Below, piece by piece: positions 5,295 through 57,609 of a DNA stretch of 64,000 nucleotides. Source of the DNA: Eledone cirrhosa (taxonomy: Eukaryota); NCBI GenBank assembly GCA_964016885.1, contig OZ024740.1, positions 156,240,001-156,304,000 on the forward strand, read 5' to 3'. The notes below the pieces were generated by a model that saw only the letters and a list, made by a program, of their open reading frames with translations, did no database searches and was not told the DNA's origin. Each line of letters starts with the position of its first letter. Within the stretch, counting starts at the first letter, position 1. Position numbers and translations under genes: made by a program.

Positions 5295-5640
5295 GAGAGA
5301 AAGAGAGTTAGTTCCATCACAAAATAGACAACCTTACGCGAGGACGCGCGTTTCACCGGATTGATTATTCAACCCGTGTATGGCTGCGAAGAGAACGAAA
5401 ATTGTCTTCCCTACAACAGTCAAATTTGAATTATCTCCCTTGTCATCAAACTACCGACATCTACCGCGCAGATCCAGTCAGCTCATATATACTTATTCTT
5501 ATCACAGCCATACCTGGGTTGAAAATCCGTCAGGCGAAAGGTGCGTCCTATGGTTTGCTAATTTGTTGTGGATCTAATTCTATACCAAACTCGTCCTTTG
5601 GACTGAGTGCTCTAACAACTACAGATATAACTGCCCGTTT
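5295..5640. mobile_element. PLE pLTR-end fragments (inverted HHR 3' half plus tail)
   Basis: minus-strand GAAACGCGCGTC at 5343-5354; tail 5570-5640 related to 34225-34295, 40905-40985, 42800-42875 and 57541-57609. Confidence 0.55.
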
Positions 5641-5961
5641 TATATATATATATATATATATATATAGTTCAAGAGTAATCAATCTTAAAGAGAGAGATGG
5701 AGATAGGAGAGGACATGGGAGAGGAGAAGAGAGATTGTTGAATTAGTTTGAGGCCAAAGCGTAAAGGCATGTGCTCAATGTGCAATATACAGTGGAAGGC
5801 GGCTAGGTGGCTGGGTTCATGCAGAAGTTAGGTGCACAGAGCTGGAAATATTCATTAGTAAAGCAAAACAAGACCACAAATTTCACAAGGAAGACATTAT
5901 TAAAAGATTGTCAACATAGTTTTAGTTTAATGTAAGGAATGTAGAGAATAATAATAATAAT

Positions 5962-6139
5962 AATTGTTTCTACTTTATACACAAGGCCAGCAATTACCCA
6001 GTGCATTACTGGTACTTTATTTTATAGACCCCGTAAGGATGAAAGGCAAGGTCAAGCTCGGCGGGATTTGAACTCAGATCGTAAAGGGACGTAACTATGC
6101 TGGAAAGCATGGCGTCCGACCCTCTACCGATACTGCCAT
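5962..6139 (-). mobile_element. tRNA-derived SINE
   Basis: reverse complement of the 4971-5160 family. Confidence 0.85.
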
Positions 6140-6379
6140 AATAATGTCCGTTTACAATTGTTTCGCTACTCCATATAATGTTTCTGGATCAAATGATTAT
6201 AGATCATTATTGATCTGGTTCAGTTGAAGATAATTAACTTAGGTAAAATTAGAGCAGCTCATCGGAACTTCAAAAGGAATATAAATTAAAATAAAGAAAG
6301 AATGTTACATGAATGTAATGTTCCATATTTCACTATGGTGTCGTGGGTATATCGATTGTCTGCCATAGTCGAGCAATAT

Positions 6380-7686
6380 TCTGTACGTTACCCTAGATCT
6401 TAACAATAACTTATATTACCCTTATCATAAACCAGGTGAAATACTTACATATATTAGCCCACCGGCAGTCATCAGAACAGTAATCAAATCTATCTCGTAT
6501 AGGATCTCCATGCTATCAGCAAATGAGGAGATATTTATAAACAATGCGGCATATTATAATAAGGCTCTTTCTGAATCTTGTTATGAACAGTCCATTTACT
6601 ACATACCTAAATGCCATAAGAGAGCACTTCACCACAACCATAATAAACTTAACACTAGAACTAGAAATACCTTAGCATATAGCCAGATTCGCCGGAATTT
6701 TAGCAGTAACAGCACCTATACAGGGAACCTTAATGGTGGCAGTGGCCTACTTCCCACTCCAAGTAGAAAACTAAAAATCAACCCTAGAATAGGAATGAGC
6801 AATGGGATGACAAATAATAAATGCCCAGGTAATAATAACCCTATGAAGGCCCCCGCCATCTCCACTAGAACCCCTAGAAGGAATAGGCCCAGAAACATAA
6901 CCTGGCTTAACCCCCTATTCTCATCTAACTTAGCCACTAATATCCCTAAACGCTTCTTCTCTAGCCTATCTAAACATTTCCCCACCAACCATAGATATTA
7001 CAAACTCTTTAATAAAAACAACATTAAAATCTCATTCTCCACAACACCTAACCTAGCTAGCCACATCGCATTCAGTAACCATCATAAACTAAGACAGTAT
7101 AACTCCCACACCGCGGTACCCCCACCCCCATCAAATACACCACGCCACTACACCAATACTTACTCTAGTAGCACACCTCCCCCATCTAATCCTTCTAGCG
7201 CGCACCAACTGCATAGTTTAAACAACCGTACTCTCACTAACCGCAGAAGTAACTGCAACTGCCGTTACCCTAATGCATGCCCACTAAATGGACAATGCCT
7301 GACACCCAATATAGTTTATAGGTGCACAGTTAAAACTGCTTCGAATACCAGCTCCTATATTGGCTCTACCTCTAACCCTTTTAAGGTACGCTATAACGCC
7401 GACTCTTTTTCCTTCCGAGACCCTAACAATAGATGTTCGACATCTCTAACTAGGCTCATTAAAAACCTTAAATTAACCAACATTGAACACTCACTAACAT
7501 GGGATATCTTGGTTAGCGCCCAACCGTTCAATGGACGAAGAAACACTTGTGACCTCTGCCTTACCGAAGCATATTACAATAACTCTATCACGACCTCTAC
7601 CGATTAATGATAGAACGGAAGTAACCATTAGCTGTCAACATCGAAGGGCTAATTCCTTCGCCAACAGAATATTTGACCCAACATAG
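6380..7686 (+). pseudogene. PLE RT thumb + GIY-YIG endonuclease (truncated, frameshifted; includes ORF 6510-7607)
   Basis: PYHKP, RNITWLNPLFS, CNCRYPNACPL (CxCx5C), IVYRC...YIGST..FKVRY, CDLCLTE; homologous to 46612-48744. Confidence 0.9.
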
Positions 7687-8078
7687 TCATCTAGTCCCAT
7701 TTTTACTTATAGTTAATACGTTAAATAGTTATAGCTACTTAGATAATTATAAGTTACCTCCCTTACATTGTCTCTCAATTACATTGTCTCTCAATTAAAA
7801 AAAATTAGCACTTCTTAACTATAAAATACCCACAATTTCTAATTTCTCGAGGAGTTACTTCCCCTGAAACCACCCTCTAATTAGTAAGGTAAATATGTCC
7901 ATAGGCGGCCATCTTGTTATCCATAGGCAAATCTCACACAATACAGCCTCGACAGAAGAATATTGCTCGATTATGGCAGACAATAGATATACCCAGGACA
8001 CCATAGTGAAATACCAATATATGGAACATTACATTCATGTAACATTCTTTCTTTATTTTAATTTATATTCCTTTTGAA

Positions 8079-8197
8079 GTTCCGATGAGCTGCTCTAATT
8101 TTACCTAAGTTAATTATCTTCAACTGAACCAGATCAATAATGATCTATAATCATTTGATCCAGAAACATTATATGGAGTAGCGAAACAATTGTAAGC
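8079..8197 (+). ncRNA. Hammerhead-like motif with CCGAUGA core and long stem II insertion (inverted copy about 6148-6270)
   Basis: CCGATGA-GCTGCTC...GAGTAGC-GAAAC-AATT-GTA; stem I weak. Confidence 0.5.
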
Positions 8198-8218
8198 GGA
8201 CATTATTAATATTATTAA

Positions 8219-8614
8219 TTGTTTTAGTTTAATGTAAGGAAAGTAGAGAATAATAATAATAATAATTGTTTCTACTTTTGGCACAAGGCCAGCAATTACC
8301 TAGTGCATTACTGGTACTTTATTTTATCGACCCCGTAAGGATGAAAGGCAAAGTTTACCTCGGCAGGATTTGAACTCAGATCAGAAAGGGGCGTAACTCT
8401 GTGCTGCAGGACAACATGCTTTGACTTGGCCTTTCATCCTTACGGGGTCGATAAAATAAAGTACCAGTAATGCACTGGGTAATTGCTGGCCTTGTGCCTA
8501 AAGTAGAAACAATTATTATTCTTATTCTCTACATTCCTTACATTAAACTAAAACAATGTTGACAATCTTTTAATATCTTCCTTGTGAAATTTGTGGTCTT
8601 GTTTTGCTTAACTA
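8219..8614. repeat. Inverted pair of SINE copies carrying the same 3' flank as 5856-5960
   Basis: 8219-8400 is a direct copy of 5918-6097; 8421-8614 is an inverted copy of 5856-6055. Confidence 0.8.
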
Positions 8615-55542: not shown

Positions 55543-55730
55543 AATAATTGTTTCTACTTTTGGCACAAGGCCAGCAATTATCCAGTATATTACTGGTACT
55601 TTATTTTATTGACCCCATAAGGATGAAAGGCAAAGTTAACCTTGGCGGGATTTGAACTCAGAATAGCAAGGGCCGTAAGTCTATGCTGGAAAGCATGGTG
55701 TCCGACTCTCTACCGATACTGCCAATCCAC
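55543..55730 (-). mobile_element. tRNA-derived SINE
   Basis: same family, reverse orientation. Confidence 0.85.
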
Positions 55731-55827
55731 CACTTATTATCAGTAAAGAAAAGTAATAACAATTACAACAGTGAAGAAGTACTCGTTGTCGATGAATGGC
55801 AGTTATAAGTCTGTTGTAAATTGTAAA

Positions 55828-56160
55828 GGCGCATGTCTTAGTGGTTAGAGTGTTCGCCCCATGACCATAAATTGTGAGCATGATTCCTGGCGGTACGTTA
55901 TATCCTTGAGCATGACAGTTTATTTCACATTGCTCCAGTTCACTCAGCTGGCAAAGAAGAATTGTACTTGCAATTCAAACACCAGATTTCTCACACATTG
56001 GATCACGTAGAATCTCAATGAGAACTATGTGAAGATTACACGTGTTTTGGGACTGCCAAAGCATCTGCAGATTAATTTCATGAGCAGGCTTTTCCGTTGT
56101 TCGAACAACAGGAACATTCATCGCTGGAACTGACGAATGTCCAACACATAACGTAGGACA
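55828..56160 (+). mobile_element. Second tRNA-SINE family (CORE-like central domain)
   Basis: TAGTGGTTAGAG A-box, GATTCC B-box remnant, TCCTTGAGCATGACAGTTTATTTCACATTGCTCCAG. Confidence 0.55.
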
Positions 56161-56417
56161 TATATACATTTGCAGTAAACTGAGATGAAAAACTATGCAT
56201 TAAATTTGAGGGCACCTAATTCAATACGAAATGTATAAAAGGGAGATATGAAGCTAGCGAAGAGATACAATAGTTGTTGAGGTTTTACATAAATGTCGGG
56301 ATTGTTAAATATTGCACAGAAAACAACGAATTGTATTTCATGCCTGACCTTTCAAAATATTAATATCCTATTACACACACACACACACACACACACACAT
56401 ATATATATATATATATA

Positions 56418-57115
56418 AGAAATGTAATCTATGTTTTTCGAATATTAATAATAACATTCGATTCGTTTGCAATTATGCAAAAAAGCCTCATTTTTAAAGC
56501 CATGTCAGCAGAATGAGCCCCTCATTCTTGCTCTTGTGTTGGCATGTAAACAGAATTGCAGACACTAATGTTTCTGGGTATTACCCTTCACCAGTACAGC
56601 TCACTGATCACCTGCCAACTGCCAGAGTTAGTGAAAATATATGCTATTTTCTAAAATATACAGTGACTGATCGGCCTGATTTGCATATTAGCCGACTAGC
56701 TGATCAGTCAGATCTGCATATTAGCAGATCTACTGATCAGCTAGATTTGCATATCAGCAGACTGGCTAGTCAGTTTCGTGTATACGAGCGATAAATGGCC
56801 GGCTTTCAAATAAAAGAAAAAATTTCGCTCTACATGGCTGAATACAATAAATGTAATCTGAGTTTTTTGAATATTGATAATAACATTCGATTCGTTTACA
56901 ATTATGCAAACAAGCCTCATTTATAAAGCCATTTCTTGCTCTTGTGTTGGCATGTAAACACAAGAGAAAAATGAGGGGCTCACTCTACTGACATGACTTT
57001 AAAATAAGCCTTGTTTGCATAATTGCAAACAAATCGAATGTTATTATTAATATTCAAAAAACTCAGATTACATTTATTGTATTCAGCCATGTAGAGCGAA
57101 CATTTTTTTCTTTTA
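56418..57115 (-). mobile_element. Mini-element family D: 429 nt unit, partial tandem plus inverted arm
   Basis: direct repeat 56420/56849; inverted 56958-57114; HHR-like TGTA-CTGGTGA-AGGGTAATACCCA-GAAACATTAGTGTC-TGCA at 56557-56598; TA flanks. Confidence 0.75.
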
Positions 57116-57140
57116 TATATATATATATATATATATATAT

Positions 57141-57400
57141 AAGCGGAAAAAATGAAACGAAATTTCATTTCCCACTCTTAGTACGGCTGTTACTTAAATA
57201 TAAGTATGTACACGTACATACATATATGTATACAGACGTACAGTAGTATGTATATATATATACATACATGCACACATATATATATGTACGTATGGATTCA
57301 CCGAACATTTATTATAACGCTCGGTGTGTTTGTAAACAAACATCCCGTATTAAGCCGTAGTGTCTAGCAACCATCGTTGCTCGTTTGTTCAACACTGACA
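57141..57400 (-). mobile_element. Mini-element family A, partial
   Basis: matches 41383-41643. Confidence 0.75.
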
Positions 57401-57401
57401 A

Positions 57402-57609
57402 ATAAATAATTACAACAGTGACATAAACAGGTACTCAAGTTTCGTTGGTTTCTGGGCCCCAATTCATTCAGCCTGTCATCTCATGGGGCCCAGAACCCCA
57501 CGAAACTTTAGTACCTGTTTATTTCACTGTTGTAATTATTTATACTAAACTTGTCCTATGGGCTGAGTGCTCTTACTCTTGGATATTTCCACTTAACCTT
57601 TACTTCAGT
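57402..57609. mobile_element. Small fold-back PLE end with HHR 3' half and tail
   Basis: arms 57402-57461/57484-57543; GAAACTTTAGTA; tail with GAGTGCTC. Confidence 0.65.

Follow-up and report, generated by a model that had tools for sequence, protein, structure and literature searches.

In the present study we investigated the octamer GAGYRCTC in 64,000 nt of the genome of Eledone cirrhosa (3.0 Gb; assembly GCA_964016885.1, contig OZ024740.1); this whole stretch of analysed DNA is referred to as the window. The octamer lies beside (TA)n runs in repeats that otherwise look dissimilar. We found these repeats to be the one-sided tails of Hydra-clade Penelope-like elements (PLEs) and of their non-autonomous derivatives, and GAGYRCTC to be the 3' strand (GAGY) and the 3' flank (RCT) of a conserved, predicted bulged hairpin, hereafter the module. 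The module is conserved, its pair N/N' covaries and the ends of element copies coincide with its edges. We consider it fairly probable that this hairpin, of which Hydra-clade PLEs carry one or two copies between hammerhead ribozyme and ATG, is an RNA signal that starts copying by the reverse transcriptase (RT) just upstream of it. Our best reading of the sequences is that the module would position a telomerase-like RT at two alternative internal start sites.

Six exact copies of GAGYRCTC were present in the window (5605, 17279, 34252, 48777, 49118 and 57565) compared with 0.55 expected, and none of 100 shuffled windows reached six. Sites with one mismatch were found at 40942, 35679, 44579 and 41305. 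The preliminary description of this DNA had cited nine tail sites 36-67 nt before a (TA)n run and a minus-strand copy (48784-48777) 32 nt before the ATG at 48744; all of these exist, with the sequences described. The distances from motif start to run were, in order of position, 36, 52, 44, 42, 44, 67, 42, 50 and 44 nt. The window is rich in microsatellite and holds approx. 250 merged (TA)n runs. When the window was compared with itself, 5605, 40942, 34252 and 57565 belonged to one tail family or its sub-families, and 35679 and 44579 to another. Because several sites are copies of one family, the window contains approx. five independent cases and not nine. Two additional one-mismatch tails on the minus strand (59109-59116 and 33274-33281) had been absent from the earlier list.

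The genome was sampled as 120 random 10-kb pieces drawn with a fixed seed, 60 of them (600 kb) for discovery and 60 (600 kb) for a pre-stated validation. In the discovery sample 20 of 32 exact motifs were located 30-80 nt before a (TA)n run with n of at least 5, where 4.2 were expected, and in the validation sample 7 of 22, where 2.3 were expected. Over both samples (1.2 Mb) this amounted to 27 of 54 exact motifs compared with 6.5 expected. Five palindromic control motifs of the same composition, pooled, were found at this position in 6 of 93 cases in discovery and 2 of 80 in validation (8 of 173 together). The positional enrichment proposed earlier thus held over composition-matched controls in two independent samples. 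Every 7-mer was also scanned, with clusters of similar flanks each counted once. GAGTGCT was second in rank among all 7-mers seen, with 13 clusters compared with 1.54 expected (p = 1e-8). The contexts bearing the motif comprised 13 sequence clusters in the right orientation and two families seen only in the window, after one tandem-repeat case and seven clusters that merely read these tails in reverse had been left out. Among 62 multi-copy flank clusters beside (TA)n only nine had the motif in at least two of three members, in most of the nine in all members; several of the motif-less clusters were tail-less ends of the same elements. The motif formed an island of identity between tail families without other detectable similarity, and non-autonomous families lacking an open reading frame (ORF) retained it although their remaining tail diverged.

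Conservation beyond this genome was followed in 78 metagenome loci of related PLEs with 40-48% protein identity, of which 50 were scored, namely those whose ORF reached 600 aa or more and was preceded by 80 nt or more of sequence. The exact motif was present within 200 nt before the ATG in half of them (25/50). The exact matches, 34 in number, fell into two groups, 18-47 nt and 76-107 nt before the ATG; the five control motifs pooled gave two. Counted as 41 distinct upstream clusters, 19 had an exact copy and 17 more a one-mismatch copy (36/41), with the mismatch mostly at the last base, and among the five clusters without the motif three look like mis-called starts. Taken over 41 distinct PLE families of unrelated metagenomes, the module had one or two copies in the stretch from hammerhead ribozyme to ATG. 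In published Hydra consensuses, inspected by eye, the motif was exact and duplicated before the ATG in one sea-cucumber family, and exact and single behind the hammerhead in a second. Two coral families had one exact and one one-mismatch copy, and a copepod and an octopus family had a degenerate motif. Text counts in the supplement of PMC8557442 gave four exact motifs in approx. 15 kb of Hydra consensus, all outside ORFs, and five in approx. 470 kb of Naiad and Chlamys consensus, mostly in coding-like contexts; these are counts from which motifs split over text lines would be missed.

The layout of the module is 5'-RCTC (box 1), N, a loop or inner stem, N', a U-N bulge, GAGY and RCT-3', and the loop between box 1 and the bulge has 8-19 nt. 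Among 19 family representatives of this genome the base at -3 was always a purine and the base at -2 always a pyrimidine (both 19/19), and a T followed the motif in 13. A Watson-Crick complement of GAGY was found 6-46 nt upstream in 12 of these representatives, compared with 2.9 from shuffles; ACTC accompanied the GAGT variants and GCTC the GAGC variants. Exact box 1 was present in 25 of 39 tail instances, 20 of which also had a pairable fifth pair, and family A had a one-base bulge in place of the two-base bulge. In the metagenome cores (first seven bases) a complementary 4-mer was located 8-19 nt upstream in 46 of 52 cases, compared with 3.5 expected. The base after box 1 and the base at -3 were compared in 48 modules and were C-G in 36, T-A in 11 and T.G in one, with no mismatch (Fisher, 5e-10); C-G and T-A both occurred in first and second modules. 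The two bases between this covarying pair and GAGY were U-N in 48/48 modules, and the next inner pair was standard or wobble in 33/48. GAGYRCTC looks palindromic because box 1 pairs with GAGY, but the element itself is strand-specific: GAGCACT was on the coding strand in 47 of 48 metagenome modules and its complement in none.

The ends of copies were located in metagenome loci with a hammerhead core after the ORF, by alignment of their 3' region with the 5' regions. Of 33 loci that qualified, 25 gave an alignment; in nine of these the alignment reached the end of the available sequence and in 16 it broke. Thirteen of the 16 copy ends lay at -1 to +4 nt from box 1 of the first or second module, and the exceptions were at +16 (a cross-family alignment), +27 and -6. 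Beyond the break (TA)n or another flanking sequence followed, and the bases shared last were usually rich in TA. In the active family of this genome two of three aligned copies matched through the whole tail, as far as the base that precedes box 1 of the second module, and the third stopped 2 nt short, inside the internal TATA. The tails of families A' and B end in the internal TATA or TAT. In families A, B, D and E the tail-less end was found, by eye, 8-12 nt ahead of the first module's box 1. The tail measures 60-100 nt and is located before the ATG, and the motif in it is part of the module that flanks the other, proximal end site. Because copy ends sit at module edges, the distance from motif to (TA)n is the spacing from the first module to the next end site. 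Within a family this spacing is constant (8/9 copies of family B have 52 nt), and between families it varies from 36 to 82 nt. In the autonomous families the (TA)n junction does not take its position from the tail motif; it sits at the 5' edge of the second module, 0-6 nt off, at the internal TATA.

The identity of the carrier elements was read from the intact ORF of the window, P0001, and from the loci of its relatives. In the translation of P0001 RT motif C (YRDDG) and the GIY and YIG boxes are present. RWK, DKT, the linker CxCX5C, CxxC and CxH were identified, with no CCHH inside GIY-YIG, by eye against the clade description and not by alignment. The relatives of P0001 and the nearest Atlas clusters matched PF01541 (GIY-YIG) and PF00078 (RVT_1); a Pfam scan of P0001 itself found nothing, and profile and sequence searches of the PDB with P0001 gave nothing usable. 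The Hydra clade has been described by RWK, a change of DKG to DKT, the CxCX5C linker, the lack of CCHH, CxxC and CxH near conserved E and N, and insertion into (TA)n; its PLEs are short (under 3 kb) and have a single ORF and a canonical-type hammerhead near the 3' end (PMC8557442). In the window the unit 44637-49168 abuts (TA)n at both ends, as do all family tails. Its ORF measures 2.1 kb and the untranslated regions (UTRs) a few hundred nt, and the 3' UTR of this copy holds approx. 1.3 kb of microsatellite. Its inverted 5'-truncated copy and one-sided tail agree with the published picture of PLE insertions, in which an inverted partial copy and a one-sided tail occur (PMC8557442). The modules and the parts of this unit in the window are the following.

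5589-5612, plus strand: family A module (box 1 5589-5592, motif 5605-5612); tail approx. 5579-5640, (TA)n from 5641.
17259-17286, plus strand: family B module (box 1 17259-17262, motif 17279-17286), with T/A as pair of fifth nucleotide and -3 and TT as bulge; (TA)n from 17331.
33274-33281, minus strand: motif with one mismatch, accompanied by box 1 and a T/A pair; the right end of a 10.8-kb (TA)n array is 66 nt away.
34236-34259, plus strand: family A' module; (TA)n from 34296.
35638-35686, plus strand: family C module with long loop (box 1 35638-35641, one-mismatch motif 35679-35686); (TA)n from 35721.
40942-40949, plus strand: decayed motif in a 5'-truncated family A tail, no box 1 left; (TA)n from 40986.
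41169-41312, plus strand: family E, with hammerhead-like core 41169-41212, box 1 41280-41283 and one-mismatch motif 41305-41312; (TA)n from 41372.
44579-44586, plus strand: one-mismatch motif of a second family C tail; (TA)n from 44621.
44637-44862, minus strand: 3' end of the PLE unit with hammerhead core 44722-44686, tail-less and stopping at (TA)n (proximal end site); inverted repeat of 48867-49092 at 100% identity.
46124-46227, minus strand: older copy of the PLE 3' end, 82% similar, with hammerhead-like core 46217-46201.
46612-48744, minus strand: intact ORF P0001 of 710 aa, RT and C-terminal GIY-YIG endonuclease with Hydra-clade signatures.
48777-48855, minus strand: second module of the full-length copy (box 1 48855-48852, motif 48784-48777 preceded by GTT), 32 nt from the ATG.
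48867-49168, plus strand: inverted 5'-truncated copy with hammerhead core 49007-49043 and proximal end site near 49092; its tail ends at (TA)n at 49168.
49101-49104 (box 1) and 49118-49125 (motif), plus strand: first module within this inverted copy.
57565-57572, plus strand: motif of tail family A2; (TA)n from 57609.
59109-59116, minus strand: one-mismatch motif of an E-type tail, 69 nt from the run ending at 59047.

In 7 of 12 fetched loci the element showed the order hammerhead core, proximal end site, first module, internal TATA, second module, 32 nt and ATG. The P0001 family is young: its 5' region was 100% identical over 217 nt in 27 of the 41 genomic matches listed, with 866 first-look candidates. 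Family A had more than 1000 first-look candidates in the genome. The elements had earlier been described as unrelated. This does not apply: in three different autonomous Hydra-type families of this genome the sequence upstream of the ATG is the tail of A' (locus L123), of B (locus L070) or of D. Because the tails belong to one PLE clade, their shared motif reflects common descent plus constraint. The tail is one-sided and present in part of the copies. Family B had nine junctions with a tail and eight without in the first sample, family A has inverted arms without a tail, and the unit of the window has its tail on one side only.

Hammerhead cores of the form CUGANGA ... GAAA with stems I and II and a minimal stem III matched the published Hydra descriptor in families D and E. 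Families A and B have retained the GAAA-stem III-cut half only, and the CUGANGA half is missing. In Rfam searches no hit reached gathering thresholds in the window, and no hammerhead was returned even at E values up to 0.5 or 10. The same E-value searches returned hundreds of matches to microRNA families (mir-297, mir-3149, mir-1277 and others), which were hairpins of TA/CA microsatellite; such hairpins are a systematic source of false positives for microRNA families in this genome. Two other identities of the repeats were considered and rejected. Family A, whose tail resembles a D-arm when read in reverse, is not a tRNA-derived short interspersed nuclear element (SINE): ARAGORN found no tRNA in the window, and the 5'-truncated copies put the motif side at the 3' end, which is the opposite polarity. 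The motif is also not part of the hammerhead core, as judged by eye from its position approx. 60 nt or more beyond the cut site.

Several further features of the carriers were observed. The bodies of families A and B are long inverted repeats with head-to-head arms (5480-5560 and 17180-17255; also loci L002, L003, L006, L033 and L055), and family C has CAGAAGA instead of the CUGANGA core. Some full-length copies (L081, L080) begin with an inverted tail fragment joined to a forward tail, or with head-to-head hammerhead regions; priming by both target strands on one shared start site would be predicted to produce such starts. More distant Hydra-type ORFs with 30-39% identity to the N-terminus of P0001 were present in the same genome (L062:970-1221 and L109:2573-4504). 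Box 1 and GAGC are retained before their ATG and the bases after GAGC are changed, one of the two being without the central two motif bases. In the unit of the window a microsatellite of (CA)n/(TA)n type (44863-46123, approx. 1.3 kb) lies between the older and the terminal copy of the 3' end. A similar stretch precedes the pseudo-long terminal repeat (pLTR) in other genomic copies and seems to travel with the element.

The biochemistry of the Poseidon PLE (PMC11167929), combined with the anatomy of the module, leads us to infer that the module may be bound by the PLE protein, take part in priming and license non-autonomous copies. In the proposed mechanism the endonuclease would nick the (TA)n target, and each module would be bound by the PLE protein, setting the active site of the RT on U/A-rich bases immediately 5' of the module. 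With these template bases, beside the protein-bound module, the freed TA end would pair, and cDNA synthesis would begin there. Copies started at the module nearest to the ribozyme would have no tail, and those started at the next one would retain the first module within a one-sided tail of 60-100 nt. Such a module-retaining copy, sitting in (TA)n, would yield read-through RNA with the module followed by (UA)n, which would probably be copied again. This re-copying would license a swarm of non-autonomous families that have nothing else in common. A possible, more tentative extension is that the hairpin may act as a portable start tag, so that one module with a UA stretch behind it would suffice for any RNA to be copied into (TA)n sites. 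If true, this would explain how one PLE clade has spawned many unrelated non-autonomous families. The module, conserved in cnidarians, echinoderms and this genome, would then be the first RNA element to be defined as a recognition signal of PLE retrotransposition.

Several observations weigh against the module as an RT start signal. In 14 of the 39 tail instances of this genome no exact box 1 was found within 50 nt. For families F, G and H the predicted pairing is in a different register, and no partner was seen in K and J2. Thermodynamically the helix is marginal, with folding z-scores from -0.7 to -2.8 and +0.33 in family B, and extra structure was not found in the loops of 47 hairpins (mean z +0.34 relative to shuffled loops). 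The enrichment was weaker in the validation sample (7/22), and the metagenome loci, which stem from a small number of studies, are not necessarily independent. A clean second module is missing in the old autonomous copies L123 and L070. Finally, the distance from the second module to the ATG is tight, with a mode of 22-28 nt, and a pure RT signal does not need that.

This last point would suit a promoter, transcription-start or translation-control element of the 5' UTR, which would be present in the tails only as a copy of the region upstream of the ORF. The second module was located 16-47 nt before the ATG in 30 of 52 instances, and the pLTR of Penelope and Chlamys is known to hold promoter and start site (PMC8557442). 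We nevertheless consider such a function unlikely. The ORF-less non-autonomous families keep the motif while the remaining tail diverges, the coincidence of copy ends with module edges is not predicted by a promoter, and the covariation together with the variable loop length points to a folded single strand.

Copy ends at the module edge would also be obtained if the module were an RNA-processing signal, where cleavage just 5' of it makes the RNA's 3' end and the RT starts there and not internally. In Anolis the ends of RNA-seq reads do fall on the RT start sites (PMC11167929). Nevertheless, in vitro the unprocessed RNA was the main substrate of Poseidon and the RT started internally (PMC11167929). 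In addition, the site has neither a nuclease nor a ribozyme core next to it; the cut of the hammerhead is some tens of nt further upstream (approx. 40-50 by eye). We regard processing at the module as improbable.

The preliminary description had proposed a cis signal for RT priming or for recognition by the endonuclease. A cis signal that is kept under selection and tied to the 3' ends of copies agrees with our results, but recognition of duplex DNA fits them poorly. A duplex site for a dimeric GIY-YIG endonuclease that homes to existing tails would account for GAGYRCTC being palindromic as a class and for the clustering of tails at shared (TA)n runs, and according to a report cited in PMC11167929 the Penelope endonuclease requires the tail for recognition. 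The strand asymmetry of GAGCACT and the spacing of the boxes, which varies from 8 to 19 nt, led us to reject a symmetric DNA palindrome bound by a dimer. Moreover, solitary insertions in plain (TA)n are the rule. Homing to a duplex site is thus very unlikely as an explanation of the motif.

That the motif has no function and reflects chance or the neutral shared ancestry of uniformly conserved tails is hardly credible: several window sites are indeed copies of one family and old copies decay (the motif was mutated in 5/9 family B copies of the first sample), but uniform conservation of ordinary homologous tails is contradicted by the motif island between otherwise dissimilar families and by the covariation, and the enrichment over controls in two independent samples and the conservation across organisms at 40-48% protein identity also speak against it.

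The remaining part of the window contains repeats of other kinds. The region 22426-33215 is the 10.8-kb (TA)n-based array, which has a higher-order structure. Blocks of approx. 3 kb recur in direct and inverted orientation at 86-94% identity (e.g. 22427-27392 compared with 25407-30484), and short unique islands recur at 98% identity (24378-24516, 24899-25038, 27388-27527 and 27910-28049). A repeat family of approx. 190 bp, unrelated to the tails, is present in at least eight copies in both orientations at 84-95% identity (4970-5163, 5949-6138, 8251-8408, 8421-8529, 40255-40456, 51604-51800, 54690-54899 and 55537-55752). Three minus-strand ORFs (9757-10926, 60843-62150 and 62258-63700) gave RVT_1 and a weak Exo_endo_phos match and are fragments of non-LTR elements of the type of long interspersed nuclear elements (LINEs). 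The latter two sit where the window ends in a GC-rich part (51-54% GC).

Earlier publications describe PLE tails, internal initiation, the targeting of (TA)n by the Hydra clade, inverted partial copies and hammerheads. A literature search on PLE tails and initiation, which took in the main text of PMC11167929, found no paper that links the motif or hairpin to PLE tails. In the accessible parts of the text and supplement of PMC8557442 no nucleotide motif or hairpin of tail or 5' UTR is described, although its consensuses contain the motif. The Poseidon study, made on one element in vitro, found two internal start sites and named no recognition sequence (PMC11167929). The module is a concrete candidate for an RT start signal in another PLE clade that can be tested by mutation. 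As such a signal it would explain why tail length is family-specific but fixed, why tails are on one side only and why one 8-mer is common to otherwise dissimilar hammerhead-bearing repeats in (TA)n. If the module alone were sufficient, it would offer a compact handle for RNA-templated insertion and a marker for PLE-derived repeats that current libraries miss.

Among the closest known systems is the Poseidon PLE of Anolis (Frangieh et al. 2024, PMC11167929). In purified form its protein nicks DNA that is AT-rich and initiates reverse transcription internally, at two adjacent sites in a stem-loop. Its tail is the stretch between the two start sites, and the RNA that surrounds them binds the protein and is needed for activity. 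Both systems have a one-sided extension in part of the copies, downstream of the hammerhead, with two alternative end sites and a stem-loop. In Poseidon the stem-loop is AC-rich and located inside the ORF, and the tail has 30-40 bp and no homology to the target (PMC11167929). The elements described here instead have a tail of 60-100 nt before the ATG, one sequence-conserved predicted hairpin per end site and TA-rich ends like the target. With the Hydra clade, which belongs to the C-terminal EN+ PLEs (Craig et al. 2021, PMC8557442), they share the single ORF, RWK, DKT, CxCX5C, the lack of CCHH, insertion into (TA)n and inverted 5'-truncated copies.

A short 3' stem-loop beside a simple repeat, common to autonomous and otherwise unrelated non-autonomous elements, is also found in eel UnaL2 and UnaSINE1, and in LINEs of the stringent type the stem-loop of the 3' tail is needed for recognition by the RT (PMC1636434, PMC4176376). 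The carrier here is a GIY-YIG PLE with a telomerase-like RT and not a LINE of the apurinic/apyrimidinic endonuclease (APE) type. The LINE loop occupies the extreme 3' end, whereas the modules lie inside the template, in pairs that flank the proposed start sites, so that the likeness is functional only.

Small hammerhead repeats that depend on PLEs and resemble the pLTR have been described as animal non-LTR retrozymes (Li et al. 2026 preprint, 10.64898/2026.07.22.740005), and the families described here are similar to them. The retrozymes form vertebrate tandem arrays, and no tail motif is named in the accessible part of that preprint; the present families are dispersed in (TA)n, A and B with half a hammerhead.

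A last comparison concerns the RNA of telomerase. Its template boundary and recognition elements consist of a helix and conserved single-stranded bases, are bound by TERT and fix where copying starts and stops. The RTs of PLEs are the sister group of TERTs (PMC8557442). These elements lie beside the template, as the module would; telomerase copies a short template repeatedly, whereas a PLE copies kilobases once.

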